Assembly (NCBI RefSeq): GCF_055900595.2
Contig: NZ_CM148325.1
Length of the DNA stretch: 64,000 bases
Direction: 5' to 3' (one strand)
Each line of letters starts with the position of its first letter. Position 1 is the stretch's first letter. Both the position numbers and the translations under genes were made by a program. The notes beneath the pieces are model-generated. The model was given only the letters and a program-made list of their open reading frames with translations. It did not search any database and was not told where the DNA came from. Positions 8,333 through 33,300 of the stretch are shown one piece after another.

Positions 8333-8549
8333 ACTTCTCTCCCTGATCAGATTTCAACGTGTTGAAAAATAGTATGACGCGACATCATAGACAAGTCTGC
8401 GTCCGGTGAAGATAAATCTGCATCCAGATTAGAAATTCTGTATTCAGCGTTGAGACTTCCTTCAGGCGGCGCATACAGGTATGTTAGTCGGGTAATAATC
8501 ACAAATAAGATCATTCTTTACATCGCAACCCTGAAAAAGTGACTTTCCT

Positions 8550-9770
8550 ATGGCAATGAGTGAACAAACCCAGCCAGTGGCTGGCGCTGCTGCGTCAACG
8601 ACCAAGGCCCGAACATCGTTTGGTATTTTAGGTGCTATCAGCCTCTCACATCTGCTGAACGACATGATCCAATCGCTGATTCTGGCGATTTATCCCCTGC
8701 TTCAGTCAGAATTTTCTCTGACATTTATGCAAATTGGCATGATAACCCTCACCTTCCAGCTCGCCTCTTCACTATTGCAACCGGTGGTCGGCTACTGGAC
8801 GGATAAATATCCGATGCCGTGGTCGTTGCCGATTGGCATGTGCTTTACCTTAAGCGGTCTGGTGCTGCTGGCGCTGGCGGGCAGTTTTGGCGCAGTTCTG
8901 CTGGCGGCGGCGTTGGTCGGCACTGGTTCGTCGGTCTTTCACCCGGAATCCTCACGCGTGGCCCGAATGGCGTCTGGTGGCCGTCATGGTCTGGCGCAAT
9001 CTATCTTCCAGGTCGGCGGAAACTTTGGCAGTTCACTTGGTCCCTTGCTGGCGGCGGTAATTATCGCGCCTTATGGCAAAGGTAACGTGGCGTGGTTTGT
9101 ACTGGCTGCTCTGTTAGCTATCGTGGTGCTGGCGCAAATCAGCCGTTGGTACTCTGCACAGCACCGAATGAATAAGGGCAAACCCAAAGCAACGATTATC
9201 AATCCACTGCCGCGCAACAAAGTGGTACTGGCGGTCAGCATTCTGTTAATCCTGATTTTCTCGAAATATTTCTATATGGCGAGCATCAGCAGCTATTACA
9301 CCTTTTATCTGATGCAAAAATTCGGATTATCTATCCAGAATGCCCAGCTTCATCTATTTGCATTCCTGTTTGCCGTTGCGGCAGGTACGGTGATCGGCGG
9401 GCCTGTAGGGGATAAAATTGGACGGAAATATGTGATTTGGGGCTCTATCCTCGGCGTTGCGCCGTTTACGCTGATTTTACCCTACGCCAGCCTGCACTGG
9501 ACGGGGGTTTTAACGGTGATTATTGGATTTATCCTCGCTTCGGCGTTCTCTGCCATTCTGGTCTACGCTCAGGAGCTACTTCCAGGACGTATCGGTATGG
9601 TTTCTGGACTCTTTTTCGGTTTTGCTTTCGGCATGGGGGGTCTGGGAGCGGCAGTTCTGGGGCTTATCGCCGACCACACCAGCATCGAGTTAGTCTATAA
9701 AATCTGTGCTTTCCTGCCACTATTGGGGATGTTGACCATATTCCTACCTGATAACCGGCATAAAGACTGA
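8550..9770 (+). CDS. fsr: Fosmidomycin resistance MFS transporter
   Basis: 406 aa, multi-pass membrane protein, recognised. Confidence 0.92.
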   Translation: MAMSEQTQPVAGAAASTTKARTSFGILGAISLSHLLNDMIQSLILAIYPLLQSEFSLTFMQIGMITLTFQLASSLLQPVVGYWTDKYPMPWSLPIGMCFTLSGLVLLALAGSFGAVLLAAALVGTGSSVFHPESSRVARMASGGRHGLAQSIFQVGGNFGSSLGPLLAAVIIAPYGKGNVAWFVLAALLAIVVLAQISRWYSAQHRMNKGKPKATIINPLPRNKVVLAVSILLILIFSKYFYMASISSYYTFYLMQKFGLSIQNAQLHLFAFLFAVAAGTVIGGPVGDKIGRKYVIWGSILGVAPFTLILPYASLHWTGVLTVIIGFILASAFSAILVYAQELLPGRIGMVSGLFFGFAFGMGGLGAAVLGLIADHTSIELVYKICAFLPLLGMLTIFLPDNRHKD

Positions 9771-10007
9771 TTTCATTGCAGCCAAAGGCAAACTTTGGCT
9801 GCATCGTTTTACAGTCGCCATAAGCCTTTCCTCTGTTAAACCGCCTTCTGTTTTCCGATCCGTGCTTTTTTTGCCGCTAATTCCATTTTTCTGCAAAATT
9901 CAACAATTATTCATAAACATCATCAATGAAATTGTCATAAACTATTACCTGTAATTTTGGTTTTCCCGGCCAAAAATGGACAATAACCACCAGGAAAAGG
10001 AGACGGA

Positions 10008-11684
10008 ATGCATCACGCCACCCCGCTTATCACCACCATTGTTGGCGGCCTTGTGCTCGCCTTTATCCTCGGCATGCTGGCCAATAAACTACGCATTTCT
10101 CCTCTGGTGGGATACCTGTTAGCAGGTGTGCTGGCGGGACCATTCACTCCTGGCTTTGTTGCCGATACCAAGCTCGCGCCGGAACTGGCGGAGCTGGGCG
10201 TTATTCTGCTGATGTTCGGCGTCGGTTTGCACTTTTCGCTGAAGGATTTGATGGCGGTAAAGGCCATCGCCATTCCCGGCGCGATCGCCCAGATAGCCGT
10301 GGCGACGCTGCTGGGTATGGCGCTCTCCGCCGTGCTGGGCTGGTCGTTAATGACCGGTATCGTGTTCGGTTTATGTCTTTCCACCGCCAGTACCGTGGTG
10401 TTACTGCGCGCACTTGAAGAACGGCAATTAATAGACAGCCAGCGTGGGCAAATCGCCATCGGTTGGTTGATTGTGGAAGACCTGGTCATGGTTCTGACGC
10501 TGGTATTGCTGCCCGCAGTAGCAGGAATGATGGAACAGGGCGATGTGGGCTTTGCCACTCTTGCAGTCGATATGGGGATCACCATCGGCAAGGTGATCGC
10601 ATTTATCGCCATTATGATGCTGGTAGGTCGCCGTCTGGTGCCGTGGATTATGGCACGCAGCGCAGCAACCGGTTCCCGCGAGCTGTTTACCCTGTCGGTG
10701 CTGGCGCTGGCGTTAGGGATTGCCTTTGGTGCGGTGGAGCTGTTTGATGTCTCCTTTGCACTCGGTGCGTTCTTTGCCGGGATGGTACTGAACGAGTCTG
10801 AACTGAGTCACCGTGCTGCCCACGATACGCTGCCATTACGCGACGCGTTTGCGGTGCTGTTTTTTGTCTCCGTCGGAATGCTGTTTGATCCGTTAATTCT
10901 GATTCAGCAACCACTGGCGGTGCTAGCGACGCTGGCGATTATTCTGTTTGGTAAGTCATTAGCCGCGTTTTTCCTGGTGCGACTGTTTGGTCACTCTCAA
11001 CGTACGGCATTAACTATCGCCGCCAGCCTGGCGCAAATTGGTGAGTTCGCTTTTATCCTGGCGGGGCTGGGGATGGCGCTGGATCTGTTGCCGCAGGCCG
11101 GACAAAACCTGGTGCTGGCAGGGGCAATCCTGTCGATTATGCTTAACCCGGTGCTGTTCGCGCTGCTGGAGAAATATCTGGCGAAGACCGAAACGCTGGA
11201 AGAGCAGACGCTGGAAGAAGCTATCGAAGAGGAGAAGCAGATTCCGGTGGATATCTGCAACCATGCGCTGCTGGTAGGTTATGGTCGTGTGGGCAGCCTG
11301 CTGGGGGAGAAGTTGCTCGCATCTGATATTCCTTTAGTGGTGATTGAGACGTCACGTACTCGCGTCGATGAACTGCGCGAGCGCGGGGTCCGGGCGGTAT
11401 TAGGCAACGCGGCGAATGAAGAAATTATGCAACTAGCGCATCTGGAATGCGCAAAATGGCTGATCCTGACGATTCCCAATGGTTACGAAGCAGGCGAGAT
11501 TGTGGCGTCTGCTCGCGCGAAAAACCCGGATATTGAGATTATCGCCCGCGCCCATTATGACGACGAGGTAGCATATATTACCGAGCGCGGGGCGAATCAG
11601 GTGGTAATGGGCGAGCGTGAAATCGCCCGTACTATGCTGGAACTGCTGGAAACGCCACCGGCGGGTGAAGTGGTGACGGGGTAA
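10008..11684 (+). CDS. ybaL: CPA2-family putative K+/H+ antiporter with C-terminal RCK/KTN domain
   Basis: 558 aa, recognised. Confidence 0.92.
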   Translation: MHHATPLITTIVGGLVLAFILGMLANKLRISPLVGYLLAGVLAGPFTPGFVADTKLAPELAELGVILLMFGVGLHFSLKDLMAVKAIAIPGAIAQIAVATLLGMALSAVLGWSLMTGIVFGLCLSTASTVVLLRALEERQLIDSQRGQIAIGWLIVEDLVMVLTLVLLPAVAGMMEQGDVGFATLAVDMGITIGKVIAFIAIMMLVGRRLVPWIMARSAATGSRELFTLSVLALALGIAFGAVELFDVSFALGAFFAGMVLNESELSHRAAHDTLPLRDAFAVLFFVSVGMLFDPLILIQQPLAVLATLAIILFGKSLAAFFLVRLFGHSQRTALTIAASLAQIGEFAFILAGLGMALDLLPQAGQNLVLAGAILSIMLNPVLFALLEKYLAKTETLEEQTLEEAIEEEKQIPVDICNHALLVGYGRVGSLLGEKLLASDIPLVVIETSRTRVDELRERGVRAVLGNAANEEIMQLAHLECAKWLILTIPNGYEAGEIVASARAKNPDIEIIARAHYDDEVAYITERGANQVVMGEREIARTMLELLETPPAGEVVTG

Positions 11685-11689
11685 GACAT

Positions 11690-11885
11690 TGATTCCATTG
11701 CCGGATGCGATGCTGGCGCATCTTATCCGGCCTACAGGTGCCACCTTCCAAAGGTCGGATAAGGCGTTTATGTCGCATCCGACTGTCATTGCCGGATGCG
11801 ATGTTGACACATCTTATCCAGCCTACAGGTGCCATCTTTCGTAGGTCGGATAAGGCGTTTATGCCGCATCCGACTGTCATCAGTC
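11690..11885. repeat. REP/BIME cluster (two tandem about 95-bp palindromic units)
   Basis: gccggatgcg...cgcatccggc palindromes typical of E. coli REP elements between convergent ybaL and gsk. Confidence 0.8.
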
Positions 11886-11892
11886 CGATAAC

Positions 11893-13197
11893 TTAACGAT
11901 CCCAGTAAGACTCTTCCAGACTGTCTTCACGCTCCGGTAAGCCGCGCGTTAAACGAGGTGAATGCTGGTTCAGTACCTGATAGCTCACACGGTTAGCATA
12001 TTTACACACCTGCGCTAATGACGAATACGTTAACCAGGTGAATTTATGTTTGCTGGAGTTTGGTACGTTGCTACGGTGGTAGCTGTTGGCGGTAATGTCA
12101 TGCAGCAATGCTGCCAGTGCGCCATCCCCGGCACCGTTGGTGTTCATGATCTTTTCCGGCCCGCCCATGTACGGCGCAATGTGAGAATAGACGCGCAGCG
12201 GGTTCTGGCAATCTTTATGGCGCATGGCGCGGCTAAACTCATACTGGTTAAATTCCGCTATAGCGCCCGGCAGCAGCGGATGCTGGGTTTTACGTTTCGC
12301 TTCGTCTTCAGTAAAGCCCGCCATATACAAGCCGATTGGCCCGGCGGTGCACAGCACCAGATCAACCCAGTCCAGCGCCTTGTCAGATGCCAACAACGGA
12401 TCGCTTTCTCCGGTCAACGCTTCGGCCTCATCTTCGTTCATCGCAAGGATAGAGACGTGATCTTTGAGGAATTGCTGCCACCACTGCGGATTCTCGGCAA
12501 TGACAAACTTGGTGCCCAGCGTCAGCACCACCGGTACGTTATATTTCTTCGCGTACTCAATGGCTTTCATGGTTGCTTCCGGCATGGGTTCACCCGGCTT
12601 ACAACGCACCAGATAAGAAGTGAGAACCAGTGCCGAGGCTCCGGCAATCACATCTTCCGGAATACTTTCAGCCCGCAGCTGGTTCATGTGGCCAGGGCTG
12701 ATAGCAAAGGTACGTTCCCCGGACTCGCCAATCAGGGTAAAGCAGCGACCAATCGGGCCGTCCACGCCTTGCAGATAGTTAAGATCGGTACGGCTGGAGG
12801 TGTTACACAGGTAACGATAGGCATAGCTGCCAATTTCAATATTGCTGCACATGACGCCCAGCAGCACCGAACGGTCGTCCGCGAGCACCGAGTAGTTGTG
12901 CATGGTGTTACCAATGGTGCCACCCGCAAACTGGTGAGTAATCAGGTTTTTCTGTTTCAGCTCCTGATAAAGTGCTTCGGCAACATCATCCTCAATCACC
13001 AGTGAATGCCCGGCGCTTAATCCATAACGCTCAATGAACTCATCATCCACTTTCGCTTCAATATCGACCAGCGTTTGATCGATACCCACTACCCAGGCAG
13101 CGCTGGTTTCGTTTTCTGGCTGGAATTGCTGAAGCAGCGGATCGCGTGCGTTTACGGGAAAATAATGTTTGGATTTACGTTTGCCGGGAAATTTCAT
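11893..13197 (-). CDS. gsk: Inosine-guanosine kinase
   Basis: 434 aa, recognised. Confidence 0.95.
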   Translation of the reverse strand: MKFPGKRKSKHYFPVNARDPLLQQFQPENETSAAWVVGIDQTLVDIEAKVDDEFIERYGLSAGHSLVIEDDVAEALYQELKQKNLITHQFAGGTIGNTMHNYSVLADDRSVLLGVMCSNIEIGSYAYRYLCNTSSRTDLNYLQGVDGPIGRCFTLIGESGERTFAISPGHMNQLRAESIPEDVIAGASALVLTSYLVRCKPGEPMPEATMKAIEYAKKYNVPVVLTLGTKFVIAENPQWWQQFLKDHVSILAMNEDEAEALTGESDPLLASDKALDWVDLVLCTAGPIGLYMAGFTEDEAKRKTQHPLLPGAIAEFNQYEFSRAMRHKDCQNPLRVYSHIAPYMGGPEKIMNTNGAGDGALAALLHDITANSYHRSNVPNSSKHKFTWLTYSSLAQVCKYANRVSYQVLNQHSPRLTRGLPEREDSLEESYWDR

Positions 13198-13348
13198 GGT
13201 TGTTTTTACGGGTGGTTAACTGAGCGGCGAATGTTAACACAATCAGACGGGAGCGCGCGAGACGCAGCCAGTTTCAATATCAGCAGGCGGGATCGCATTT
13301 TCATGGCAGTGGTTCCTTACAATGACGTAATTTGAAAGGAGTTTTTGC

Positions 13349-14308
13349 ATGAAGCCGGAAAACAAATTACCCGTTCTGGACCTTATTTCTGCTGAAATGA
13401 AGACCGTTGTGAATACTCTTCAGCCGGATTTACCGCCCTGGCCCGCAACGGGAACGATTGCTGAGCAACGACAGTATTACACACTTGAGCGCCGATTCTG
13501 GAATGCGGGCGCTCCAGAAATGGCAACCAGCGCTTACATGGTTCCCACACCTTATGGTCAGGTCGAGACTCGCCTCTACTCACCCAAAAGTCACAGCCCG
13601 GCGACACTATTTTATCTGCATGGTGGTGGTTTTATTCTCGGCAATCTTGATACCCACGATCGGATTATGCGACTGCTGGCAAATTACACCCAATGTACAG
13701 TGATTGGTATTGCTTACACTCTTTCGCCGGAAGCACGTTTTCCGCAGGCAATAGAGGAAATTGTGGCTGCCTGTTGCCACTTCCACCAGCAGGCAGAGGA
13801 TTATCAAATCAATATGTCACGCATTGGTTTTGCTGGTGATTCTGCAGGCGCAATGCTGGCGCTCGCCGGTGCGTTGTGGTTACGTGATAAACAGATAGAT
13901 TGCGGTGAAGTTGCGGGCGTTTTGCTGTGGTATGGGCTTTACGGATTACGGGATTCCGTGACTCGTCGTCTGTTGGGCGGTGTTTGGGATGGCTTAACGC
14001 AAGAGGATTTACAGATGTATGAAGAGGCGTATTTAAGCAACGACGCTGACCGCGAGTCGCCGTATTACTGCCTGTTTAATAATGATCTCACTCGTGAGGT
14101 TCCGCCCTGTTTTATTGCCGGAGCGGAGTTCGATCCGCTGCTGGATGACAGCCGTCTGCTTTACCAGACGTTAGCGGCGCATCAGCAGCCCTGTGAGTTC
14201 AAACTCTACCCAGGCACGCTGCACGCCTTTTTGCATTATTCACGGATGATGAAAGCCGCCGACGAGGCTCTTCGCGACGGCGCTCAGTTCTTTACCGCTC
14301 AGCTTTAG
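13349..14308 (+). CDS. aes: Acetyl esterase
   Basis: 319 aa, HGGG motif, GDSAG serine motif. Confidence 0.95.
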
Positions 14309-15267
14309 CGATACGCGGCAACAAGATTAGCCATCATTTCGATATGTTCCGGTGTGGCATTAAGCGCCGGAATATATTCGTATTTTTTCCCGCCCGCACC
14401 GAGGAAGACCTCACGGTTTTGCTCGGCAATCTCTTCCAGCGTCTCCAGACAATCTGCAGCAAAGCCCGGGCACATCACCTGAATATGACCTACGCCTTTT
14501 TCTCCGAGCATTTTCAGCGTTTCATCGGTATAAGGCATTAGCCAGGGTTCCCGACCAAAACGCGACTGAAAGGTCATCATCACTTTTTCCGGAGCCATTC
14601 CCAGTGCGGAAGCCAGTTCACGTGTAGTTGTGCGACAACGTTGCGGGTAATCATCGCCTTCATCGGCATAACGCTGGGGAATGCCATGATAAGAGAGCAG
14701 CAGCAGATCCGGTTCGCCATGTTTGGCAAAAGAAGCACGTACGCTGTTCGCCAGTGCATTAATGTAATCGTGGTTATCGGCGTAATCACGAATAAACGAT
14801 ATCCCCGGAATGCTACGTTTGCGCGCCAGAATGCGTGCCAGTTCATCCCATACCGCACCGACCGTTGAACAGGAGTATTGCGGATAAAGCGGAAGCACCA
14901 CAATATGATCTACATGCTCTGCCAGGAGTTCATCTACGGCGCTTTCCAGTGATGGCGAGCCGTAGCTCATTCCCAGCGCTACGGGCGTCTCCGGTAAACG
15001 TTGTGCCAGCGCCTGCTGTTGCTGGCGGCTGTAAACCATCAGTGGCGAGCCGCCCTCCATCCAGACAGAGGCATACAACTTCGCCACACGCGGCGAGCGC
15101 AGCGGCAAAATCACGCCGTGCAGCAACGGCCACCACAACAGCCGTGAGGTATCAACCACGCGTCTGTCGCTTAAAAATTGTTTCAGGTAGCGTTTTACCG
15201 CTTCAGGAGTGGGGGCATCGGGTGTACCCAGGTTTGCCAGCAGAATACCGGTTTTAGTTTGACGCAT
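14305..15267 (-). CDS. hemH: Ferrochelatase
   Basis: 320 aa; 4-bp convergent overlap with aes. Confidence 0.95.
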
Positions 15268-15398
15268 TACCGCCTCTTATCGATTCAACTTGTTGATAAT
15301 TGTAGCGGAAAAGTGAAGAAGAAGAACTAATTGCTGTGAGAGGTTTTGCCTGAGGAGGATGAGCAGACCTGCCCGAAAGCAGATCTGCTGCGGCTTAA

Positions 15399-16115
<717 letters not shown>

Positions 16116-16223
16116 TCAAGAAAGGCACCTGAGGCTGAAACGGTTAATGGCGAGATAATTTGCGGAAAGGACAGATGATGAAAAGAAAAATGCCGGATGA
16201 CACGAGGGTCATCCGGCATTACA

Positions 16224-18098
16224 TCAGGAAACCAGCAGCTGGTTCATACGACGAATAAACAGGTTCGGATCTTCCAGCGTACCGCGCTCTGCCAGCAGCG
16301 CCTGATCCAACAGTAATTCTACCCACTCGCTGAACTTCGCTTCATCTTCAGTATCTGCCGCACGTTTCACCAGTACGTGATCCGGGTTCAGTTCGAAGAT
16401 GTATTTCACTTCTGGTACTTTCTGGCCCGCCGCAGCGAACAGTTTCGCCATCTGGGTGCTCATTTCGTCCGCGTCGGTCGAAACGATCGCTGGCGTATCG
16501 GTCAGACGGTGGGTCAGACGGACATCTTTCACGCGCTCGCCGAGCAGGGCTTTCACACGGTCGATGAACGGAGTCAGTGCTTTCTCCGCTTCTTTCGCGT
16601 TCTCATCAACTTCGTCAGCCAGTTTTTCCAGCGACTCGTCAACTTTAGACACAGACTGGAACGGTTTACCGTCGAACTCAGTCAGATAGTTCATCATCCA
16701 CTCATCGATGCGGTCGGAAAGCAGCAGAACTTCGATGCCTTTCTTACGCAGCAGTTCCAGGTGCGGGCTGCTCTTCGCTGCCGCATAGCTGTCTGCGGTG
16801 ATGTAGTAGATTTTCTCCTGCCCTTCTTTCATGCGGGAAACGTAGTCTTCCAGAGACACGGTCTGCGCAGAAGAGTCGGTATGGGTAGAAGCAAAACGCA
16901 GCAGTTTGGCGATCGCTTCCTGGTTAGCGAAATCTTCCGCCGGACCTTCTTTCAGTACCAGGCCAAACTGTTGCCAGAAGGTCTGGTATTTTTCCGCGTC
17001 GTCTTTCGCCAGTTTTTCCAGCATTTGCAGCACACGCTTGGTCAGCGCATTGCGCAGGTTGCGGGTTACGGTGCTGTCCTGGAGGATTTCACGGGAAACG
17101 TTCAGCGGCAGATCGCTGGAGTCAATCAGACCACGCACGAAGCGCAGATAGTTCGGCATGAACTGTTCTGCGTCGTCCATGATGAACACACGCTGGACGT
17201 ACAGTTTCAGGCCGTGCTTATGATCGCGGTTCCACATATCCCACGGTGCCTGCGACGGAATATACAGCAGGCTGGTGTACTCCTGCTTACCTTCGACACG
17301 GTTGTGGCTCCAGGTCAGCGGATCGTTAAAGTCGTGAGCGATGTGTTTGTAGAACTCTTTGTACTCTTCATCGGTGATTTCCGACTTGTTACGAGTCCAC
17401 AGCGCCTGCGCTTTGTTGATTTTCTCCCAGGAGATAACGGTTTCGCCGTCTTTCTCTTCGCGTTTTTCGATCTCTACCGGCAGCGCGATATGGTCGGAGT
17501 ATTTGCTGATGATGGAACGCACGCGCCAGTCATCGAGGAACTCGTCTTCGCCTTCACGCAGATGCAGGGTGATTTCAGTACCACGATCTTCTTTGGTGAT
17601 GTCGGCAACGGTATATTCACCTTCGCCAGCCGATTCCCAGAAGACGCCGTTTTCTGGTTTTTCGCCTGCCGCGCGAGTACGCACGGTCACTTTGTCGGCC
17701 ACGATAAACGCAGAGTAGAAACCAACACCAAACTGACCGATCAGTTGGCTGTCTTTCGCCTGGTCAGAACCCAGGGATTCGAGGAATGATTTGGTGCCGG
17801 ATTTAGCGATAGTCCCCAGATGGTCAATCACTTCGTCGCGGGTCATCCCCACGCCGTTATCGGAGATGGTAAGCGTGCGCTTGTCTTTATCGAAAGAGAC
17901 ACGAACGCGCAGTTCGCCATCACCTTCGTACAGGTCCGGGTTGGAGAGCGCGCGGAAACGCAGCTTGTCCGCCGCATCGGAGGCGTTAGAGATAAGCTCA
18001 CGCAGGAAGATTTCTTTATTGGAATAGAGAGAATGGATCATCAGGTGCAGAAGTTGTTTCACTTCTGACTGAAAACCACGAGTTTCTTGTCCTTTCAT
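16224..18098 (-). CDS. htpG: Hsp90-family chaperone
   Basis: 624 aa, recognised. Confidence 0.97.
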
Positions 18099-18207
18099 GT
18101 AGGTCTACCTCAATAATGCCATTTTAAGGTTAAAAACAGGATGAGGGAGAGATGGGGACAAGGGAGAATAATTTCAAGCGAGAGCAGGTGATCCTGCTCT
18201 CGTTTGC

Positions 18208-18812
18208 TTAAAAACGAATCTTATGACGCCCGGCAAGGGAGTGTGACAGCGTGGTGCCATCGACCATTTCCAGCTCGCCGCCAACCGGTACGCCATGAGC
18301 GATTCGGCTGGCTTCCACGTCATATTGCGCGCAAAGCTCGGCAATGTAGTTAGCGGTAGCTTCACCTTCAACCGTGGGGTTGGTGGCTAGGATCACTTCA
18401 GTGATTTTTTCCTCTGCCAGACGCTGTTCCAGACGATCAAGGCCGATATCATCCGGACCGATGCCGTCCAGCGGTGACAGATGTCCCATCAACACAAAAT
18501 AACGACCTGAAAACTGCCCCGTCTGCTCAATGGCATAAATGTCCGCCGGACTCTCCACCACGCAGATTTGACCGTTTTCCTGACGACGCGGATTCGAACA
18601 GATGTTACAGACTTCCTGTTCGGTGAAAGTGCGGCAATCGGCGCAGTGGCCGATTTCCGACATCGCCCGGGTGAGCGCCTGCGCCAGACGCATCCCGCCG
18701 CTACGATCGCGCTGAAGCAGCGTGAACGCCATACGCTGCGCCGACTTCGGGCCAACGCCCGGCAGACAGCGCAGTGCTTCCATAAGCTGTGTTAACAGCG
18801 GGCTGGTTTGCA

Positions 18813-18813
<1 letters not shown>
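18208..18813 (-). CDS. recR: Recombination protein RecR
   Basis: 201 aa, C4 zinc finger and Toprim region. Confidence 0.95.
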
Positions 18814-19157
<344 letters not shown>

Positions 19158-19194
19158 TCACGTTAAGGATGACGAACGTAAGCTGTGCTTACGA

Positions 19195-21126
19195 TCAAAT
19201 GGGGCGGATACTTTCTTCATCCAGCTCCGCATCGAAGAATCGACGCAGGGTCTGAATATTATTATCCGCAATAATGGACTCGCGCGCCTGCGCAAGTTTT
19301 TCTTCGTATATCGCCTGACGCCATTCCAGCGGCGTGCGCACCGCGGGATTATCATCTTCAACGATAGTCAGTTCAACCGTTGAACCTTTTAACGTGCTCA
19401 ACGCTTCAGCCAGTTTTTGCTGTGCACCGCGGTTGTTTAAATGCCGCTGAGAGGAGCGCAAATGCAGACATACTGCGTTGTCGCTCTCCTCTTTCCAAGC
19501 ATTTAACGCCACCTGTTCGACCAGTTTTGGTAGCGAAAGTTGGCTCACCTGTGCCGCCCAAGGATCGCGGTCAATGGCTTCTGCCGCCAGCTTTGCCGCC
19601 AGTTCCGGCGTTTTTTCATGTTCCAGCGCTTTTTTCAGCGCCTTCGGCGTGGCGACCACCTCTTTTTGCTGCATCACTGGAGTGGTAGCCTTCCAGCGAT
19701 ACGCTTCTTTTTTGGCTGGTGCTTTTTCCAGCGCCGATGGCCCCGGACGCGCCTGAACGCGATCGGTGACCGAAGCCAGTCTTTCCAGCGCAGCGTTATT
19801 CACCGGCCGCGCGCGGGTAGCGGCTGCCGGTTCACTCTTTTTTGCTTTGGTTGCTCCCTGTGCGCGCTGCAGTTGTTGGCGCGCTGCCAGCACCTGGCTG
19901 GTGGTTTCTGAGAGCGGTACAGTCGGTGCCTGCTGCGGTGCTGATTGCGGTTGCGGCGGCACCTGGGTTGGCGTCATTACTGCCGTTGGCGCGACGGGCG
20001 CAAAAGACTGGCGTGGCACTTCTGGCTCAGGCAGCGGCATACGCGGATGAAACGCCAGTGCGCGCAACAGTGTCATCTCAACGCCCATGCGGCGGTCCGG
20101 CGCATACGGTAATTCTTTGCGACCAATCAACAGCGTTTGATAGTAAAGCTGAATATCCGTCGGCGGTATGGTGCGCGCCAGTTCACGCATCCGCAGCTCG
20201 ATGGCGGCCATGTCGTTGCCCAGCGCAGCAGGGGAAAGTTGCACCATTGCAATGCGGTGCAACAGGCCGAGCATTTCTACCAGCAACGCTTCCCACTCAA
20301 TACCACGAGCGGCGGCTTCATTAATCAGCGACATTACACGCTCGCCGTTGGCTTCAACCATCGCTTCAACCAGCGACAGCGCCTGATCGTCGTCAAGCGT
20401 ACCCAGCATCGCACTGACCGCCTGGGTTGAAACCTGGCCGTCACCGCTGGCAATTGCCTGGTCGGTTAAACTTAGGGCATCTCGCAAGCTGCCTTCAGCG
20501 GCGCGCGCCAGCAGTTGCAGCGCCCGCGGCTCGTGAGCGATATGTTCTTCGTTGAGGATGTGCTCAAGCTGATGGCGAATTTGCTCGACATCCAGCGCCT
20601 TGAGATGAAATTGCAGGCAGCGTGACAAAATCGTCACCGGCAATTTCTGCGGATCGGTCGTCGCCAGCAGAAACTTGACGTGCTCCGGCGGTTCTTCAAG
20701 GGTTTTTAACAGTGCGTTAAAGCTGTGGCGCGACAGCATATGCACTTCGTCGATCAGATAAACTTTAAAACGACCACGCGCTGGCGCGTACTGGACGTTA
20801 TCCAGCAGGTCGCGGGTATCTTCGACTTTGGTGCGCGAGGCGGCGTCGATTTCAATCAGATCGACAAAGCGCCCCTGCTCAATTTCACGACAGTTATCGC
20901 ACACGCCGCACGGCGTCGCGGTAATGCCGGTTTCGCAGTTTAGCCCCTTCGCCAGCAGTCGGGCGATAGAGGTTTTTCCGACGCCACGGGTGCCGGAAAA
21001 AAGATAAGCATGATGAATACGCCCTAACGACAAGCCGTTCGCCAGTGCGGTCAGCACATGTTCCTGGCCGACGACGTCAGCAAAGGTTTGTGGGCGCCAT
21101 TTTCGGGCTAAGACCTGATAACTCAT
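19195..21126 (-). CDS. dnaX: DNA polymerase III tau subunit (gamma produced by programmed -1 frameshift)
   Basis: 643 aa, AAA+ Walker motifs; slippery heptamer A AAA AAG at 19837-19843 (minus strand). Confidence 0.97.
   Translation of the reverse strand: MSYQVLARKWRPQTFADVVGQEHVLTALANGLSLGRIHHAYLFSGTRGVGKTSIARLLAKGLNCETGITATPCGVCDNCREIEQGRFVDLIEIDAASRTKVEDTRDLLDNVQYAPARGRFKVYLIDEVHMLSRHSFNALLKTLEEPPEHVKFLLATTDPQKLPVTILSRCLQFHLKALDVEQIRHQLEHILNEEHIAHEPRALQLLARAAEGSLRDALSLTDQAIASGDGQVSTQAVSAMLGTLDDDQALSLVEAMVEANGERVMSLINEAAARGIEWEALLVEMLGLLHRIAMVQLSPAALGNDMAAIELRMRELARTIPPTDIQLYYQTLLIGRKELPYAPDRRMGVEMTLLRALAFHPRMPLPEPEVPRQSFAPVAPTAVMTPTQVPPQPQSAPQQAPTVPLSETTSQVLAARQQLQRAQGATKAKKSEPAAATRARPVNNAALERLASVTDRVQARPGPSALEKAPAKKEAYRWKATTPVMQQKEVVATPKALKKALEHEKTPELAAKLAAEAIDRDPWAAQVSQLSLPKLVEQVALNAWKEESDNAVCLHLRSSQRHLNNRGAQQKLAEALSTLKGSTVELTIVEDDNPAVRTPLEWRQAIYEEKLAQARESIIADNNIQTLRRFFDAELDEESIRPI
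19837..19843 (-). other. dnaX: dnaX programmed -1 ribosomal frameshift slippery site (A AAA AAG)
   Basis: Plus-strand cttttttg; protein context ...ATKAKK SEPAAATRARP matches the known gamma C-terminus region. Confidence 0.85.
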
Positions 21127-21254
21127 TGGCAGGCTCTGAAACGCTGGAAGGTGGATTCACGAAGGGGTAATGCTAACACAGCCCCGTCAGAACGGCGAGG
21201 CTGAATGCACATCTTGTGCTGTCCGTAGCGTGGGCAGCACAAGACTGGCAATAA

Positions 21255-21806
21255 TTAATGGCCCGGGAACGGGACAAGGCTGTAGCTGGTAATGCCCTGT
21301 TTTTCCAGACGCTGTTCGCCGCCGAGATCGAACAGGTTGATAATGAACGCAGCATCAGCCACTTCACCACCCAGACGACGGATCAGTTTAACGGTCGCTT
21401 CGATAGTGCCGCCGGTTGCCAGCAGATCGTCCACCACCAGAACTTTGTCGCCCGGTTTGATGGCATCAACGTGGATTTCCAGCTGATCGGTGCCGTATTC
21501 CAGGTCGTAAGTTTCACTGATGGTTTCACGCGGCAGTTTGCCCGGTTTACGGACCGGTACAAAGCCAACGCCCAGACCCAGAGCTACCGGAGCGCCAAAC
21601 AAGAAGCCACGCGCTTCGGTGCCGACAACTTTGGTAATGCCCGCATTTTTGTAACGCTCAACCAGTAAATCGATGCTGAGAGCGTAAGCTTTCGGGTCTT
21701 CCAGTAAGCTGGTGACATCGCGGAAAAGAATGCCGGGTTTTGGGTAGTCCTGAATGCTTTTGATGCTATTTTTGAGATACTCAAGCTGCTGTGCAGTCGC
21801 GGTCAT
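21255..21806 (-). CDS. apt: Adenine phosphoribosyltransferase
   Basis: 183 aa from [16 protein letters not shown]; longer ORF is an upstream extension. Confidence 0.95.
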
Positions 21807-21958
21807 AAGTGTATGCCTGCTTGTTACGGTGGTACTCACGGCGCGTTTTAAACGAGTCAAAAGTAACAGTTGTTTAACCTTTGACCGCCTGCGCCTGTGC
21901 TCGAAAACGCCAGAATGTACTGGCTGTGGGCGATAATTGCAACAGCGATTGTTGTGCT

Positions 21959-22336
21959 TCAGTGCTTTTCTTGCTTTTCATCAATCACCGGAATTCGCCA
22001 CATATAAAAAAGCAAACAGGCGAGAATTACCAGCAACATGATGCGCCCCCATGGCATCTGGACGAACCACAGAGAAATGGCAAACGTGAGTAAAATAAGC
22101 AAAATCGCCCGCGGTTTGACGCCGCGCGGCATCGCATGATGTTTCTGCCAGAAACGTAGATAGCTGCCAAACCATGAGCGGTAGAGCAACCAGGCGTGAA
22201 AGCGCGGGGAAGAACGGGCAAAGCACCAGGCCGCCAGCAGGATAAACGGCGTCGTCGGTAATACCGGTAATACCACGCCCAGCGTACCCAGCACTACCGC
22301 CAGCCAGCCAATGATGATTAAAATGATTCGTTGCAT
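21959..22336 (-). CDS. ybaN: Inner membrane protein YbaN (DUF454)
   Basis: 125 aa, hydrophobic. Confidence 0.9.
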
Positions 22337-22405
22337 ATTGAGTGTTGTCAGCTTACAGAGTGGCTACTTTAGCATAACAATTATCATTTTCATTGAGGTC
22401 TTATC

Positions 22406-22933
22406 GTGAAAACCGCCCTGCTGCTGGAAAAACTGGAAGGACAGCTCGCCACGCTGCGTCAGCGTTGTGCCCCGGTAGCGCAATTTGCCACGCTAAGTGC
22501 CCGTTTTGACAGGCACCTTTTTCAGACCCGTGCGACAACACTACAGGCTTGTCTCGATGAGGCGGGCGATAATCTGGCTGCGCTTCGTCATGCGGTTGAG
22601 CAGCAACAGATGCCGCAAGTGGCCTGGCTGGCGGAACATCTGGCTGCACAACTGGAAGCCATCGCGCGTGAAGCCTCCGCCTGGTCATTGCGCGAGTGGG
22701 ACAGTGCGCCACCGAAAATTGCCCGCTGGCAGCGTAAACGTATTCAGCATCAGGATTTTGAGCGGCGACTTCGTGAGATGGTTGCCGAACGTAAAGCCCG
22801 CCTGGCGCGGGTGACCGATCTCGTGGAACAGCAAACGCTGCATCGTGAAGTAGAAGCCTATGAAGCACGCCTGGCACGCTGCCGTCATGCGCTGGAAAAA
22901 ATCGAAAACAGGATAGCGCGTTTAACTCGCTAG
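22406..22933 (+). CDS. priC: Primosomal replication protein N''
   Basis: 175 aa, recognised. Confidence 0.93.
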
Positions 22934-22946
22934 CAATGGAGAGAGT

Positions 22947-23108
22947 ATGTCACTGGAAAATGCCCCTGACGATGTCAAACTGGCCGTCGATTTGATTGTG
23001 CTGCTGGAAGAAAATCAGATCCCAGCCCGCACCGTACTGCGCGCGCTGGATATTGTAAAACGCGATTATGAAAAGAAATTAACGCGCGATGATGAGGCGG
23101 AAAAGTGA
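22947..23108 (+). CDS. ybaM: Small protein YbaM (DUF2496)
   Basis: 53 aa [45 protein letters not shown]...; GGAGAG RBS; not in ORF track because under length cutoff. Confidence 0.8.
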
Positions 23109-23149
23109 GAAATAAATGGGGCCGCTAAATGTCCCCTAAGATTGCGGGT

Positions 23150-23265
23150 AAACGCAAAACTGCCTGATGCGCTACGCTTATCAGGCCTACACCGCTCCTG
23201 CAATATATTGAATTCTTGCGGTTTCGTAGGCCGGATAAGGCGGTCACGCCGCATCCGGCATGAAC
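23150..23265. repeat. REP-like palindromic elements
   Basis: gccggataaggcg...cgccgcatccggc motifs downstream of ybaM and mscK. Confidence 0.7.
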
Positions 23266-23319
23266 AACGCGCACTTTGTCAGTAATCTCGGGGCAACTAA
23301 ATGTCGCCCCCTTTGGTTA

Positions 23320-26300
23320 TTACCCTACCGCTGGTGTCGGATCGTCGCCTTTGTAGTCGCGTTTTACTTCCGTCACCTCATCGCCCTTCTCGTTGTGCAG
23401 ATGCACTTCAAGCTGGTTAAAGGCAATGTTGATGTCGTTTTCACGGCACAGCTGATCGATAGTACGGTTCAGCTCATCGACAGTACGGCTACGGTCACGC
23501 AGTTCACGCACATACAGACGCAGCTCATGATCCAACGTGCTGGCACCAAACGCCGTAAAGAAGACTTCCGGCATTGGTTCGTGCATCACCCTTGGGTGCT
23601 CAGTCGCCGCCTTCAGTAACACTTTACGCACTTTTTCCAGATCGGAGCCATAGGCCACACCGAGACGGATCACCAGACGCGTAGTAGTGTCAGTCAACGA
23701 CCAGTTGATCAGACGCTCGGTAACAAACGCTTTGTTCGGGATGATCACTTCTTTGCGATCGAAATCGGTAATCGTTGTCGCACGAATACGAATCTTACTT
23801 ACCGTCCCCGAGAAGCTACCAATGGTTACCGTATCGCCAATGCGTACCGGACGTTCGAACAGAATGATCAAACCGGAGACAAAGTTACCGAAGATCTCTT
23901 GTAAACCAAAACCAAGACCTACGGATAATGCTGCCGCCAGCCACTGGAGTTTATCCCACGAGACGCCCAGCGATCCGAACACCGTCATCGCACCAACGGC
24001 AATAATGATGTAGTTAAGGATGGTAGTAATGGCATACGACGCGCCCTGGCGCATATTCAGGCGCGAGAGCACCAACACTTCCAGCAAACCAGGCAGGTTG
24101 CGAATCAACGCCCAGGCTACCATTGAGGCGATAATCGCAAACAACAGACTGCCCATGGTGACGTTTTTCACCACCGCAGCGCCAGCTTCAGTGCCGTTGT
24201 AATGCCAGAGCGTGATGCTGTCGAGATAGCTGAACACGGTGATCAAATCTGACCAAATTGCCCAGAACATGACACCGAACAGCGCAAACATCAGCAACAT
24301 AGTAATACGCAGCGTCTGTTGGTTAACCTGCTCCAGTGCAATGGTTGGTTCTTCCGGCGGTTCGGCACCTTCTGCGCCCTCTTTCACCAGATTCTGTCGA
24401 CGCGCTAGCGCACGACGCCAGGCGATACGCCGCGCCGCTACGCTTAAGCCGCGCAATACCGTCTGGTACAGCAGGTTCCAGATAATCACCAGATACACGG
24501 TTTCAATCCAACGTCCGGAGAGGCGCAGTGTGGTGTAGAAATAACCCGTGGCGGTCAGCACCATCAACGCAATCGGGATTATCGACAGTATGGTAATGGT
24601 GACAAGTCGCATGGTGTGCGACTCTTTATCACGCCAGCTTTCGCGGCACATTGGCCATACCAGGAAGGCAATCAGCAGCAGGTTGAAGAAAATCATCGCC
24701 TGCCCCAGCACATCATCCATCAGATGCAGCGGGGAAAGTTCTGCCACCACAGACCAGAAATGGATAGGCAGCAACGCGAGACTGATGCGGACAATTTGCC
24801 GACGCCAGTGGCTGGTCTGCTGTTCCGGCATGCCGAAGTGACGCACGGCAACACCGTTTTTCTCCAGTACCTTCCAGCACAGGCCAAACACCAGCCAGAA
24901 AATCGCCAGTTTTTTACTGAACGACCATAGCAGTTCGCTGATGTTGAGCTGCATGGTCAACAGAATCAGGCCAACCGCGAGAATAATCAGGCACACCGGC
25001 AGCGCACGGATCAGGTCGATAAGGATCGCTTTTGGTGTGTTGAGCTGGCTGTCGTTACGCAGGGAACCCACAGCGGAAGCCAGTTTTTGTTGATACGCTT
25101 TCAGCCAGCCCAGACGCCAGTGGATCAGCCCGGCAATTAATAGCAGTGGCAAACCAGCGAGGAAAGCGATAAAGACGGCAGGCCAGGCTTTTTCCCAGTT
25201 TACCGTGATCTTCATCGACTTAAATTCATCTTTCAGCGTTTGTGGGAACGCTTTGATCCAGTCCCAGTCCATTGGACGGTTACTGTTCACCCAAAAGATT
25301 TGCTGAGTCAGGATCGATTTCAGGTTTTTCGACACGCTCATTAACTGCTGCTGGTTGATTTGCAGGTTAATGGCCATCATCAGCTGGTTACCCAACTGTT
25401 TGTTAAGCTGATCCAGCAATTCGCGACGCATATCAACTACTTGCAATAACGCATCGTGAACTTCGCTGTTGACTTCGTTGGTGTGACCTTCTTCCAGTTT
25501 GTTGACGAACGCATCGCTCTGGAAGAGTGCATCACGCTGCTGGTTAACTTCAAACTGTTCGAGACGCAAATCCGCGATGCGGTTGGTCATGTTTTCCAGT
25601 TCATCCGCCGAGGGCAGCGTTTGTTGTTGCTGGTAAAGGATACGAGACAACAGCAGACTGCCCTTCAGGACGGCAATCTGCTCCTTAATATTTCGTTCCG
25701 ATTGCAGCGCCCGCTCAAGCCAGTTTTTGACTTTAATGTTTTGCTGCATTAGCTGATTACCGTTTTCAGTCGCGGTAATCAGACGCTGACTCAACTGCTG
25801 GTTAATTTCCAGTTCCTGTTTCACCAGAGGATTAGCCTGAATACGTGCAGCTTCATCCGGGGAGACGGCTTCCTGCGCCGTTTTTTCGGTTAAGGTCAGG
25901 CGCTTACTGTTTACCGCTTCTTGCAACAGTTGCAACTGGTGTTCCAGACGAGCACTGTTCGCCGTCACGTAATCACGCTGCTTTTGCAAGGTATCCTGTA
26001 AGACGGTGTTCCCTTCCAGGCTTTTTCGCTGCTGGTCAATCTCAGCATTCAGCAAAACCTGCTGGGCCTGCATCAACACTTTCTGGCTGGGACGTAAGGC
26101 AGTATCGCCAACATCAGTGCCATCCAGGCGGCTGCGAATTTGTTGCAGCTGCTGCGAAGCGTTATACATCGCATTTTGCACGCGTTCGGGCTGCGTCTGT
26201 AACGAAACCAGCTGGCTGTTATAAGACGCCAGATCGTTTTGTGCGTTTTGCAAATCGTCCAGCGCCTGGGCAACGCGAGTTTCCAGCTGGCGCAACGAAA

Positions 26301-26682
26301 GCGTGCTCAGAATTTTGCGCGTTTCTTCGTCGTTATCGACATCGCTAAGTGCTGTTAACGCCGCGGTCGCCTGACGCATTTTTTCCGGCGCTTCAGCGAC
26401 TTTTTGCCGTAGCTGAACTGTCTCTTCTTTTATGCGATCGATTTTATCGAGGGTGGCTAATGTATCTGTCAGATCCTGCTGCACCAGTTTGTCCTGAGCA
26501 GAAAGATCTTTTTGTTTATTCAGTGAGTCAAGTTGTGCCTGCAGGTCCGCTTTTGTTGGCAGATCACCATTCGATGGCGCCCGCGCAAACGCCGTGTTCT
26601 GGCATAACAAGACAAAAACAAAAGCAATAAATGCTGAAAAAACAAAATGCCGTGATCGTTTGTAATACTGGAACATAGTCAT
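23320..26682 (-). CDS. mscK: Potassium-dependent mechanosensitive channel MscK (KefA)
   Basis: 1120 aa, signal peptide, long coiled-coil periplasmic region, MscS-like C-terminal domain. Confidence 0.96.
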   Translation of the reverse strand: MTMFQYYKRSRHFVFSAFIAFVFVLLCQNTAFARAPSNGDLPTKADLQAQLDSLNKQKDLSAQDKLVQQDLTDTLATLDKIDRIKEETVQLRQKVAEAPEKMRQATAALTALSDVDNDEETRKILSTLSLRQLETRVAQALDDLQNAQNDLASYNSQLVSLQTQPERVQNAMYNASQQLQQIRSRLDGTDVGDTALRPSQKVLMQAQQVLLNAEIDQQRKSLEGNTVLQDTLQKQRDYVTANSARLEHQLQLLQEAVNSKRLTLTEKTAQEAVSPDEAARIQANPLVKQELEINQQLSQRLITATENGNQLMQQNIKVKNWLERALQSERNIKEQIAVLKGSLLLSRILYQQQQTLPSADELENMTNRIADLRLEQFEVNQQRDALFQSDAFVNKLEEGHTNEVNSEVHDALLQVVDMRRELLDQLNKQLGNQLMMAINLQINQQQLMSVSKNLKSILTQQIFWVNSNRPMDWDWIKAFPQTLKDEFKSMKITVNWEKAWPAVFIAFLAGLPLLLIAGLIHWRLGWLKAYQQKLASAVGSLRNDSQLNTPKAILIDLIRALPVCLIILAVGLILLTMQLNISELLWSFSKKLAIFWLVFGLCWKVLEKNGVAVRHFGMPEQQTSHWRRQIVRISLALLPIHFWSVVAELSPLHLMDDVLGQAMIFFNLLLIAFLVWPMCRESWRDKESHTMRLVTITILSIIPIALMVLTATGYFYTTLRLSGRWIETVYLVIIWNLLYQTVLRGLSVAARRIAWRRALARRQNLVKEGAEGAEPPEEPTIALEQVNQQTLRITMLLMFALFGVMFWAIWSDLITVFSYLDSITLWHYNGTEAGAAVVKNVTMGSLLFAIIASMVAWALIRNLPGLLEVLVLSRLNMRQGASYAITTILNYIIIAVGAMTVFGSLGVSWDKLQWLAAALSVGLGFGLQEIFGNFVSGLIILFERPVRIGDTVTIGSFSGTVSKIRIRATTITDFDRKEVIIPNKAFVTERLINWSLTDTTTRLVIRLGVAYGSDLEKVRKVLLKAATEHPRVMHEPMPEVFFTAFGASTLDHELRLYVRELRDRSRTVDELNRTIDQLCRENDINIAFNQLEVHLHNEKGDEVTEVKRDYKGDDPTPAVG

Positions 26683-26809
26683 GATGAATGAAGGTTTCTG
26701 AACCTGAAGAACGACCTGAAAAAGTCAAACCGCAAGAATATCACGACGCAGTGAACCAGAATAGCAACGACGAAAATGTCCAGGAAAAATCCTGGAGTCA
26801 GATTCAGGG

Positions 26810-27457
26810 TTATTCGTTAGTGGCAGGATTACGAAGCGTGGGGCACAGGAGATACATCTCCAGTAAGATGGCGACGTAATCGCGGGCTTCTTTTTTAAGA
26901 TCAAAAGATTGCGGGGCAAAGAGCCAGTTTTCCATCAGGCCGGAAATATAGCCGCGCATAATAATTGCTGCGCGACGCGTCATTAAATCCGCAGGCAACA
27001 TTTTCGCTTCAATACAATGTTTTAACGTTTGTTCTATACGGTCATAACTTTCCAGACAGAGATTACGTTGTGCCTGTTGCACAACAGCCATTTCTCCGAC
27101 AAATTCGCATTTGTGGAATATAATCTCCATCAATAATCGACGCCGTTCTTCTGTCACCGTGGATTCAAGAACATGAATTAATATCTCTCTTAATACTGAG
27201 AGTGGATCGCCAGGGAATTTTGCCTGATACTCAAGCTCTAGTTCACCAATATTGGATTCTGACAGTTCCCAGATCTCACTGAACAAATCCGACTTGTCTT
27301 TAAAATGCCAGTAGATTGCACCGCGCGTAACGCCAGCTGCTTTTGCAATCTCACCCAGCGAGGTGGATGATACCCCCTGCTGTGAGAAAAGACGTAGAGC
27401 CACATCGAGGATGTGTTGGCGCGTTTCCTGCGCTTCTTGTTTGGTTTTTCGTGCCAT
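26810..27457 (-). CDS. acrR: TetR-family repressor of acrAB
   Basis: 215 aa, recognised. Confidence 0.96.
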
Positions 27458-27485
27458 ATGTTCGTGAATTTACAGGCGTTAGATT

Positions 27486-27509
27486 TACATACATTTATGA
27501 ATGTATGTA
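27486..27509. promoter_or_regulatory. AcrR operator, 24-bp perfect palindrome tacatacatt-tatg-aatgtatgta in acrR/acrAB divergent promoter
   Basis: Palindrome seen directly; matches remembered AcrR binding site. Confidence 0.8.
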
Positions 27510-27598
27510 CCATAGCACGACGATAATATAAACGCAGCAATGGGTTTATTAACTTTTGACCATTGACCAATTTGAAATCGGACACTCGAGGTTTACAT

Positions 27599-28792
27599 AT
27601 GAACAAAAACAGAGGGTTTACGCCTCTGGCGGTCGTTCTGATGCTCTCAGGCAGCTTAGCCCTAACAGGATGTGACGACAAACAGGCCCAACAAGGTGGC
27701 CAGCAGATGCCCGCCGTTGGCGTAGTTACAGTCAAAACTGAACCTCTGCAGATCACAACCGAGCTTCCGGGTCGCACCAGTGCCTACCGGATCGCAGAAG
27801 TTCGTCCTCAAGTTAGCGGGATTATCCTGAAGCGTAATTTCAAAGAAGGTAGCGACATCGAAGCAGGTGTCTCTCTCTATCAGATTGATCCTGCGACCTA
27901 TCAGGCGACATACGACAGTGCGAAAGGCGATTTAGCGAAAGCCCAGGCTGCAGCCAATATCGCGCAATTGACGGTGAATCGTTATCAGAAACTGCTGGGT
28001 ACGCAGTACATCAGTAAGCAAGAGTACGATCAGGCTCTGGCTGATGCGCAACAGGCGAATGCCGCGGTAACTGCGGCGAAAGCTGCCGTTGAAACTGCGC
28101 GTATCAATCTGGCTTACACCAAAGTCACCTCTCCAATTAGCGGCCGCATTGGTAAGTCAAACGTGACGGAAGGTGCCCTGGTGCAAAACGGTCAGGCGAC
28201 TGCGCTGGCAACCGTGCAGCAACTTGATCCGATCTACGTTGATGTGACTCAGTCCAGCAACGATTTCCTGCGCCTGAAACAGGAACTGGCAAATGGCACG
28301 CTGAAACAAGAGAACGGCAAAGCCAAAGTGTCGCTGATCACCAGTGACGGCATTAAGTTCCCACAGGACGGTACGCTGGAGTTCTCTGACGTTACTGTCG
28401 ATCAGACCACCGGGTCTATCACCCTACGCGCTATCTTCCCGAACCCGGATCACACTCTGCTGCCGGGTATGTTCGTGCGCGCACGTCTGGAAGAAGGGCT
28501 TAATCCAAACGCCATTTTAGTCCCGCAACAGGGTGTAACCCGTACGCCGCGTGGCGATGCTACCGTACTGGTGGTTGGCGCGGATGACAAAGTGGAAACC
28601 CGTCCGATCGTTGCAAGCCAGGCTATTGGCGATAAGTGGCTGGTGACAGAAGGTCTGAAAGCAGGCGATCGCGTAGTAATAAGTGGGCTGCAGAAAGTGC
28701 GTCCTGGTGTCCAGGTAAAAGCACAAGAAGTTACCGCTGATAATAACCAGCAAGCCGCAAGCGGTACTCAGCCTGAACAGTCCAAGTCTTAA
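27599..28792 (+). CDS. acrA: Multidrug efflux periplasmic adaptor (lipoprotein)
   Basis: 397 aa from MNKNRGFTPLAVVLMLSGSLALTGC (lipobox). Confidence 0.97.
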   Translation: MNKNRGFTPLAVVLMLSGSLALTGCDDKQAQQGGQQMPAVGVVTVKTEPLQITTELPGRTSAYRIAEVRPQVSGIILKRNFKEGSDIEAGVSLYQIDPATYQATYDSAKGDLAKAQAAANIAQLTVNRYQKLLGTQYISKQEYDQALADAQQANAAVTAAKAAVETARINLAYTKVTSPISGRIGKSNVTEGALVQNGQATALATVQQLDPIYVDVTQSSNDFLRLKQELANGTLKQENGKAKVSLITSDGIKFPQDGTLEFSDVTVDQTTGSITLRAIFPNPDHTLLPGMFVRARLEEGLNPNAILVPQQGVTRTPRGDATVLVVGADDKVETRPIVASQAIGDKWLVTEGLKAGDRVVISGLQKVRPGVQVKAQEVTADNNQQAASGTQPEQSKS

Positions 28793-28811
28793 CTTAAACA
28801 GGAGCCGTTAA

Positions 28812-31964
<3,153 letters not shown>

Positions 31965-31982
31965 TACAACGTGTAATCACTA

Positions 31983-32006
31983 AGGCCGCGCAAGCGGCCT
32001 TTTTTA
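31983..32006 (+). terminator. acrB intrinsic terminator (aaggccgcgcaagcggcctttttt)
   Basis: GC hairpin plus T-run 18 bp after acrB stop. Confidence 0.7.
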
Positions 32007-32885: not shown

Positions 32886-32910
32886 AATTATTACAACCAT
32901 GGGTAGAAGT

Positions 32911-33129: not shown

Positions 33130-33300
33130 TAAATAATTGGCTTTCGGAGCTATAACCAGCTGTTTATTAATAATTTTATACTTTATCGCCATGAAGGCGC
33201 ACCCTATGTGATCTTCATCACACAGACGTAATGGGAACGTTCTCTTCACTGACTTTTCGTCTTACTGTGTTGCCGCATTTTCAGCAACCGGAGGTCAGTA

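Follow-up and report, generated by a model that had tools for sequence, protein, structure and literature searches.

The programmed −1 ribosomal frameshift signal of dnaX in a diverged lineage of Escherichia coli

The stretch of DNA analysed here (hereafter the window) comprises 64,000 nucleotides of contig NZ_CM148325.1 from RefSeq assembly GCF_055900595.2 and represents a lineage that has diverged by about 3.5% from mainstream E. coli. On its minus strand, within the gene for the tau subunit of DNA polymerase III, lies the heptamer A AAA AAG (19837..19843), which reads CTTTTTT on the plus strand. A preliminary description, made from the letters alone, had placed an AAAAAAG at these positions and called it the known and conserved −1 frameshift site of dnaX. 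We asked whether this heptamer belongs to a functional recoding signal or whether it is a run of A residues that two lysine codons happened to produce, and which proteins the gene should be expected to yield.

The frame that hosts the heptamer (19195..21126, minus strand) encodes a protein of 643 amino acids with a mass of 71.0 kDa. We assigned it to dnaX because its product matches the NCBIfam equivalog NF005942 'DNA polymerase III subunit gamma/tau' over residues 1-643 with 979.6 bits, well above the cutoff of 613. Pfam recognizes the domains delta2, lid, gamma3, tau_4 and tau_5 in this product and assigns residues 20-178 to the ATPase module, 182-230 to the lid, 232-358 to domain III, 417-498 to domain IV (tau_4) and 500-640 to domain V (tau_5). 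The gene order apt-dnaX-ybaB-recR-htpG is the same as in E. coli K-12. The ORF listing of the locus holds the 643-aa frame alone and does not report gamma; the remark that a simple ORF caller misses the site was thus correct. A match to STnc460 at the 3' end of dnaX reached 28 bits, under the gathering score of 70, and was taken as chance. A search of the window for tRNA genes found none.

Inspection of the zero frame shows the codons GCA ACC AAA GCA AAA AAG AGT GAA CCG around the heptamer, which translate to ATKAKKSEP and confirm the protein context ATKAKK SEP given earlier. The heptamer spans gene positions 1284-1290 (offset 2) and covers Lys429 (AAA) and Lys430 (AAG) in the register X XXY YYZ. 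It is embedded in a match to the Rfam family RF00382 'DnaX ribosomal frameshifting element', which spans 19798..19862 on the minus strand and model positions 1-65 of 65. This match reached 94.6 bits (gathering score 35, E = 7e-21) and was recovered again when the whole window was scanned with Rfam.

The element contains both stimulators in addition to the heptamer. An internal Shine-Dalgarno-like motif, AGGGAG (19854..19859, minus strand), precedes the heptamer with a spacer of 10 nt, CAACCAAAGC. The duplex predicted between this motif and the anti-Shine-Dalgarno sequence has an energy of −7.4 kcal/mol, a value that places it among the strongest 2.4% of dnaX positions. Downstream of the heptamer, the Rfam structure line and the minimum-free-energy fold both delineate a hairpin of 30 nt and 11 pairs (19802..19831, minus strand) with the segments ACCGGC-A-GCCGC-UACCC-GCG-C-GC-G-GCCGGU. 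It is separated from the heptamer by the 5 nt AGUGA, or by 6 nt if counted to the first C-G pair. The Rfam structure aligned to this hairpin with zero non-canonical pairs, and the minimum-free-energy fold (−19.7 kcal/mol) is identical to it. Folding of the downstream stem-loop had been proposed as a check on the site, and its outcome was twofold: the predicted fold equals the Rfam hairpin, while its energy is not distinctive when compared to dinucleotide shuffles (z = −1.21 over 47 nt and −0.73 over 101 nt). As such z-scores are uninformative in a GC-rich coding stretch, we no longer relied on folding energy to test the hairpin and used covariation instead (see below).

We then compared the gene with dnaX of E. 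coli K-12 MG1655, for which frameshifting was described by Tsuchihashi & Kornberg 1990, Flower & McHenry 1990 and Blinkowa & Walker 1990 (as cited in PMC4756838). Both genes are 1932 nt long and align with 0 indels and 66 differences (96.58% identity), 58 of which lie in codons that still specify the same amino acid. The two tau proteins differ by six amino-acid changes, three of them within gamma (A266S, P406S and V422A). In both genes the heptamer occupies positions 1284-1290, in frame and in the same register, so the out-of-frame alignment that the preliminary description had named as counter-evidence was not seen. The two genes likewise share the codons GAG UGA in the −1 frame and the 431-aa product, and in both AGGGAG lies at −10 nt and the hairpin has the same sequence and spacing. 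Moreover, the joined two-piece gamma CDS of K-12 (YP_009518751.1) covers gene positions 1..1295 and therefore ends exactly where the −1 TGA of the window gene ends.

All 63 nt between the start of AGGGAG and the point where the element ends are the same as in K-12. The only differences inside the 65-nt element are at positions 1-2, where GTG is replaced by GCA (V422A). They lie 2-3 nt 5' of AGGGAG and fall outside the predicted anti-Shine-Dalgarno duplex, the heptamer, the spacers and the hairpin. We do not take this pairwise identity as proof of purifying selection, as zero differences in 63 nt have a chance of about 0.11 at a gene-wide divergence of 3.4%, and substitution-free gaps of comparable length are present elsewhere in dnaX between the window and K-12.

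The K-12 cassette has been studied experimentally. In vitro translation of a defined mRNA gave 84% frameshifting, which dropped to 2% when the heptamer was mutated to G AAG AAG, to 20% upon deletion of the hairpin and to 50% upon mutation of AGGGAG (PMC5389563). When located at the mRNA entry channel, the hairpin slows both translocation and binding of the A-site tRNA (PMC7282821). In vivo, ~50% of the ribosomes shift and terminate one codon later (PMC5009743); the published efficiency of the K-12 cassette amounts to ~50% in vivo and up to ~80% in vitro. E. coli reads AAA and AAG with a single tRNA-Lys (mnm5s2U34) that pairs better with AAA, which renders A AAG shift-prone (PMC5009743). Because the cassette sequence is identical to that of K-12, we infer that frameshifting in the window strain would follow the same mechanism with a similar efficiency.

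The alternative that survives best accepts a functional signal and holds that the tau:gamma ratio is shifted in the window strain, either by the GTG to GCA change (V422A) 5' of AGGGAG or by trans factors. The two differences do sit within the element and only 2-3 nt upstream of AGGGAG, the lineage is about 3.5% away from mainstream E. coli, and two substitutions in the stem-loop can bring efficiency to 176% of wild type (PMC5009743). Against such a shift, every part with a predicted role (the anti-Shine-Dalgarno duplex, the heptamer, both spacers and the hairpin) is identical to K-12 and excludes the differing bases, and the first of the two positions is one at which the Rfam consensus varies. 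We therefore regard a changed ratio as very improbable. If frameshift efficiency were indeed shifted in a divergent lineage such as this one, the consequence would be an altered tau:gamma ratio and an altered composition of the clamp loader.

A more fundamental objection is that the heptamer could be a chance A-run over Lys-Lys, with recoding absent altogether. In favor of this objection, AAAAAAG is common: the window contains 29 copies where 14.9 are expected from shuffles, and three of them are located within dnaX. Likewise, the stability of the hairpin is not significant with respect to shuffled sequences. The bare heptamer is therefore not rare and its presence alone proves nothing. The composite signal, on the other hand, exceeds chance. 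Among the 15 heptamers located in open frames of 150 codons or more, the one at 19837..19843 is the sole copy in the shift-prone register. It is also the only one of the 15 with a Shine-Dalgarno-like motif at −16..−11, and it shows both the strongest anti-Shine-Dalgarno pairing and the most stable downstream fold among them. The other two copies in dnaX, at 19707..19713 and 19629..19635, stand in the register AAA AAA G, are devoid of a Shine-Dalgarno-like motif and would lead into −1 tails of 29 and 3 codons, respectively; we rejected both as recoding sites, as they are out of register and their stimulators are missing. At 19837..19843, by contrast, the −1 frame closes immediately, the full 65-nt signal matches the Rfam DnaX family with 94.6 bits, and the functional parts are base for base those of the experimentally validated K-12 cassette. 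Together with the covariation of the hairpin between species described below, these observations leave the chance reading with hardly any probability.

To place the element in a broader context, we surveyed complete E. coli genomes by similarity to the whole gene. Out of 5426 genomes, 5424 carry the dnaX gene and 5423 the frameshift element, which is at least 99% identical in 5372 of them. RefSeq uses the label 'DnaX frameshifting element' throughout this survey. In one record, NZ_CP098223.1, the gene is 100% identical to that of the window, and RefSeq presents it as a single 'gamma/tau' CDS plus a sequence_feature that marks the same 65 nt. The signal is therefore already known, public records of identical sequence carry its annotation, and we claim no novelty for it. 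The statement that a known, conserved dnaX −1 site is present here is thus upheld by RF00382, by the identity with K-12 and by 5423 of 5426 E. coli genomes.

Beyond E. coli, we scanned species-representative genomes with the fixed pattern AGGGAG-N10-AAAAAAGAGTGA, which leaves the hairpin free. This returned 120 loci, 75 of which are located in tau-homologous ORFs. The sources of these ORFs include Citrobacter, Enterobacter, Kosakonia, Kluyvera, Pluralibacter, Pseudescherichia, Siccibacter, Trabulsiella, Buttiauxella, Serratia, Pantoea, Erwinia, Mixta and E. albertii. A further 43 of the 120 loci were non-enterobacterial matches, including Collinsella, and 0 of their ORFs matched tau in BLASTP. 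In Collinsella, AGGGAG is an ordinary ribosome-binding site in front of the GTG start of an unrelated 457-aa ORF. We rejected these 43 loci as coincidences that are multiplied by many near-identical species genomes.

The other Enterobacterales (Enterobacter, Pantoea, Erwinia, Serratia, Buttiauxella and others) share the Shine-Dalgarno-like motif, the heptamer and the −1 stop with the window, but the search pattern had prescribed all three. That AGGGAG, the heptamer and AGTGA do not vary in our alignment A1 (54 sequences) accordingly results from that pattern and is not evidence of conservation; as the set was fetched by a DNA pattern, conservation of the motif and the heptamer across genera rests on the Rfam consensus and on the survey within E. 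coli, for which the whole gene served as the query. The hairpin begins at the same offset in nearly every one of the 48 distinct downstream variants, with Candidatus Pantoea persica as the one clear exception, for which a different fold is predicted (locus L053). In these other genera, the outer six pairs of the hairpin are the same as in the window. The inner stem differs: it reads GCGC...GCGC and encloses a loop of 3-8 nt, compared to GCCGC...GCG-C-GC in the window, and in many of them the base of the stem is a G-C instead of an A-U pair.

We tested the hairpin for covariation using 53 distinct Enterobacterales sequences from at least 15 genera. The pair at the base of the stem (29:58) is A-U in 32 and G-C in 19 sequences of alignment A1, where the cells represent sequences and not independent events, so that the A-U to G-C switch may stem from one or a few events. 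The pairs 33:54 and 39:47 each show one double change from G-C to A-U. Across alignment A1, 86-90% of the cells are paired, as opposed to 25-54% after the 3' partners have been displaced by 1-3 columns, and 0 of 500 shuffles reached the observed covariation score. Cross-species covariation thus supports the predicted hairpin structure. The A-U to G-C switch at the base of the stem is accompanied by a Val to Ala change in tau and hence does not constitute silent drift. This combination is consistent with selection on the structure of the sense-strand RNA.

A further point to consider is whether ribosomes or RNA polymerase would do the shifting. In Thermus thermophilus, dnaX yields the same outcome, a truncated gamma and a full-length tau from one gene, by transcriptional slippage, and in Caulobacter crescentus the same pair of DnaX products arises by proteolysis (PMC5009743, PMC4756838). 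As homologous dnaX genes make use of it and an A-run is present, slippage of RNA polymerase might also be invoked for gamma in the window strain. However, the run consists of six A (GC AAAAAA G) and is short for this mechanism, as bacterial slippage has been described on 9 A or T (PMC5009743). Furthermore, a Shine-Dalgarno-like motif and a covarying hairpin at fixed spacing are stimulators of ribosomal frameshifting and have no role in slippage, and the 84% frameshifting of the K-12 cassette was obtained by translating a defined mRNA in vitro (PMC5389563). Transcriptional slippage is thus highly improbable here, and the mechanism differs from those of Thermus and Caulobacter.

Practically no weight can be given to the idea that the GC-rich hairpin and the T-run of the plus strand form an intrinsic terminator antisense to dnaX with the heptamer as a by-product: the reverse-complement hairpin followed by TCACTCTTTTTTG is present on that strand, but the terminator scan passed over it, as the T-run begins 6 nt past the stem and not within 0-2 nt, all real genes identified at 16.2-22.3 kb (htpG, recR, ybaB, dnaX, apt and ybaN) are on the minus strand so that there would be no plus-strand transcript to terminate, and the stem-base switch with its Val to Ala change is consistent with selection acting on the sense-strand RNA.

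We therefore identify the site with high confidence as the canonical signal for programmed −1 ribosomal frameshifting in enterobacterial dnaX. By analogy to the K-12 cassette, the following sequence of events can be envisaged. Two tRNA-Lys would be bound at A AAA AAG, with AAA in the P site and AAG in the A site. Meanwhile, AGGGAG would be paired with the 3' end of the 16S rRNA, and the hairpin, located at the mRNA entry channel, would hinder translocation. In this situation, a large share of the ribosomes would slip back by one base and both tRNAs would re-pair with AAA AAA. The slipped ribosomes would then decode GAG (Glu), stop at UGA and release gamma (431 aa), and the remaining ribosomes would stay in the zero frame and produce tau (643 aa).

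The predicted gamma CDS spans 19832..21126 on the minus strand. It follows the zero frame from 21126 to 19837 (codons 1-430) and continues in the −1 frame, where base 19837 is read a second time and GAG TGA (19837..19832) places the stop one codon past the shift. The resulting protein would have 431 amino acids and end in ...ATKAKKE. Its computed mass of 47.5 kDa and that of tau, 71.0 kDa, agree well with the values of 47 and 71 kDa quoted for the two proteins (PMC4756838). Truncation past residue 430 retains what clamp loading requires, namely the AAA+ ATPase module, the lid and domain III. It removes domain IV, which binds DnaB, almost entirely and domain V, which binds Pol III alpha, completely. 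Lacking these parts, the predicted gamma should be able to load clamps and unable to tether polymerase or helicase, in agreement with the role reported for gamma (PMC4756838, PMC11470591).

Thus, one gene gives rise to two subunits of the replisome, and an ORF caller or an annotation with a single CDS overlooks gamma. The relevance of the site is one of annotation and not of discovery, and nothing about it bears on an open question. Gamma is a genuine component of the holoenzyme, and cells that contain only tau show phenotypes that include 44% less mutagenic double-strand-break repair (PMC4756838). Judging from its sequence, the frameshift signal in the window is intact, and a normal clamp loader should therefore be expected in this strain.

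The heptamer AAAAAAG occurs 29 times in the window, about twice the 14.9 occurrences obtained from dinucleotide shuffles. Fifteen of these lie within long open frames, where the register AAA AAA G prevails (12 of 15) and the third register is found twice. The shift-prone register, A AAA AAG, is represented by a single case (1 of 15), which is the dnaX frameshift site at 19837..19843. This distribution is compatible with A AAA AAG being avoided in ordinary coding sequence. Two further AAAAAAG heptamers are found within dnaX itself, at 19707..19713 (-) and 19629..19635 (-), and both are read as AAA AAA G (Lys-Lys). An SD-like motif is absent at both positions, and the -1 frame continues for 29 codons at the former and for 3 codons at the latter. 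Recoding is not expected at either of these two heptamers.

The window as a whole (1..64000) shares approximately 96.4% identity with mainstream E. coli genomes, and matches of ~100% were obtained for only 8-12 of ~5,400 complete genomes. One of these is NZ_CP098223.1, from strain Z0117EC0005 isolated from a dog in South Korea. Because the entire window is similarly diverged, the divergence of dnaX is lineage-wide and not local. These observations fit an origin of the window from an E. coli lineage that is divergent or cryptic. A P2-like prophage occupies the left edge of the window with its right end (1..2394), which carries the gene for the late control D protein (13..675) and an ogr/Delta zinc-finger gene (within 1..2394) and is directly adjoined by copA at 2466..4970 (+). 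Only 29 genomes contain at least 80% of the length of this prophage stretch. It is missing here from the genomes otherwise 100% identical to the window, whose match begins at 2395.

A search with Rfam models placed three further RNAs above their gathering scores, i.e., the sRNA sroB at 5959..6042 (-), the 4.5S/SRP RNA (ffs) at 36667..36763 (-) and the sRNA sraA at 54415..54510 (+), all of which are ordinary E. coli features. ARAGORN found no tRNA genes in the 64 kb. In the 3' end of dnaX, at 19255..19344 (-), the Salmonella sRNA family STnc460 gave a match that remained sub-threshold at 28 bits (gathering score 70), with an E-value of 0.016 and large deletions, and is probably due to chance.

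The PGAP-annotated NZ_CP098223.1 contains one 'gamma/tau' CDS and a sequence_feature for the frameshift element, and the K-12 reference NC_000913.3 lists the tau CDS and a joined gamma CDS separately. For this reason, the protein sets of most RefSeq E. coli records do not include gamma.

Outside the Enterobacterales, the pattern AGGGAG-N10-AAAAAAGAGTGA recurred in Collinsella, at loci L003, L004 and L013 and ~40 others. There it forms the ribosome-binding site and GTG start of a conserved 457-aa ORF unrelated to dnaX, and we therefore rejected these loci as dnaX frameshift sites. The matches are coincidental, and their number is inflated by the many species genomes that are nearly identical.

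Within the Enterobacterales, our alignment of 54 dnaX frameshift elements (columns 36-51; loci L005-L120) revealed two alternative kinds of inner stem, built on six common outer pairs. Escherichia, Citrobacter and Kosakonia employ GCCGC/GCG-C-GC with a 5-nt loop, and Enterobacter, Serratia, Pantoea, Erwinia and Buttiauxella employ GCGC/GCGC with a loop of 3-8 nt. Candidatus Pantoea persica (L053:2969-3033) retains the heptamer together with the SD-like motif and the -1 stop, but the canonical hairpin lacks its 3' arm, and a different fold of -22.5 kcal/mol is predicted. The element of this symbiont genome may possess an altered stimulator.
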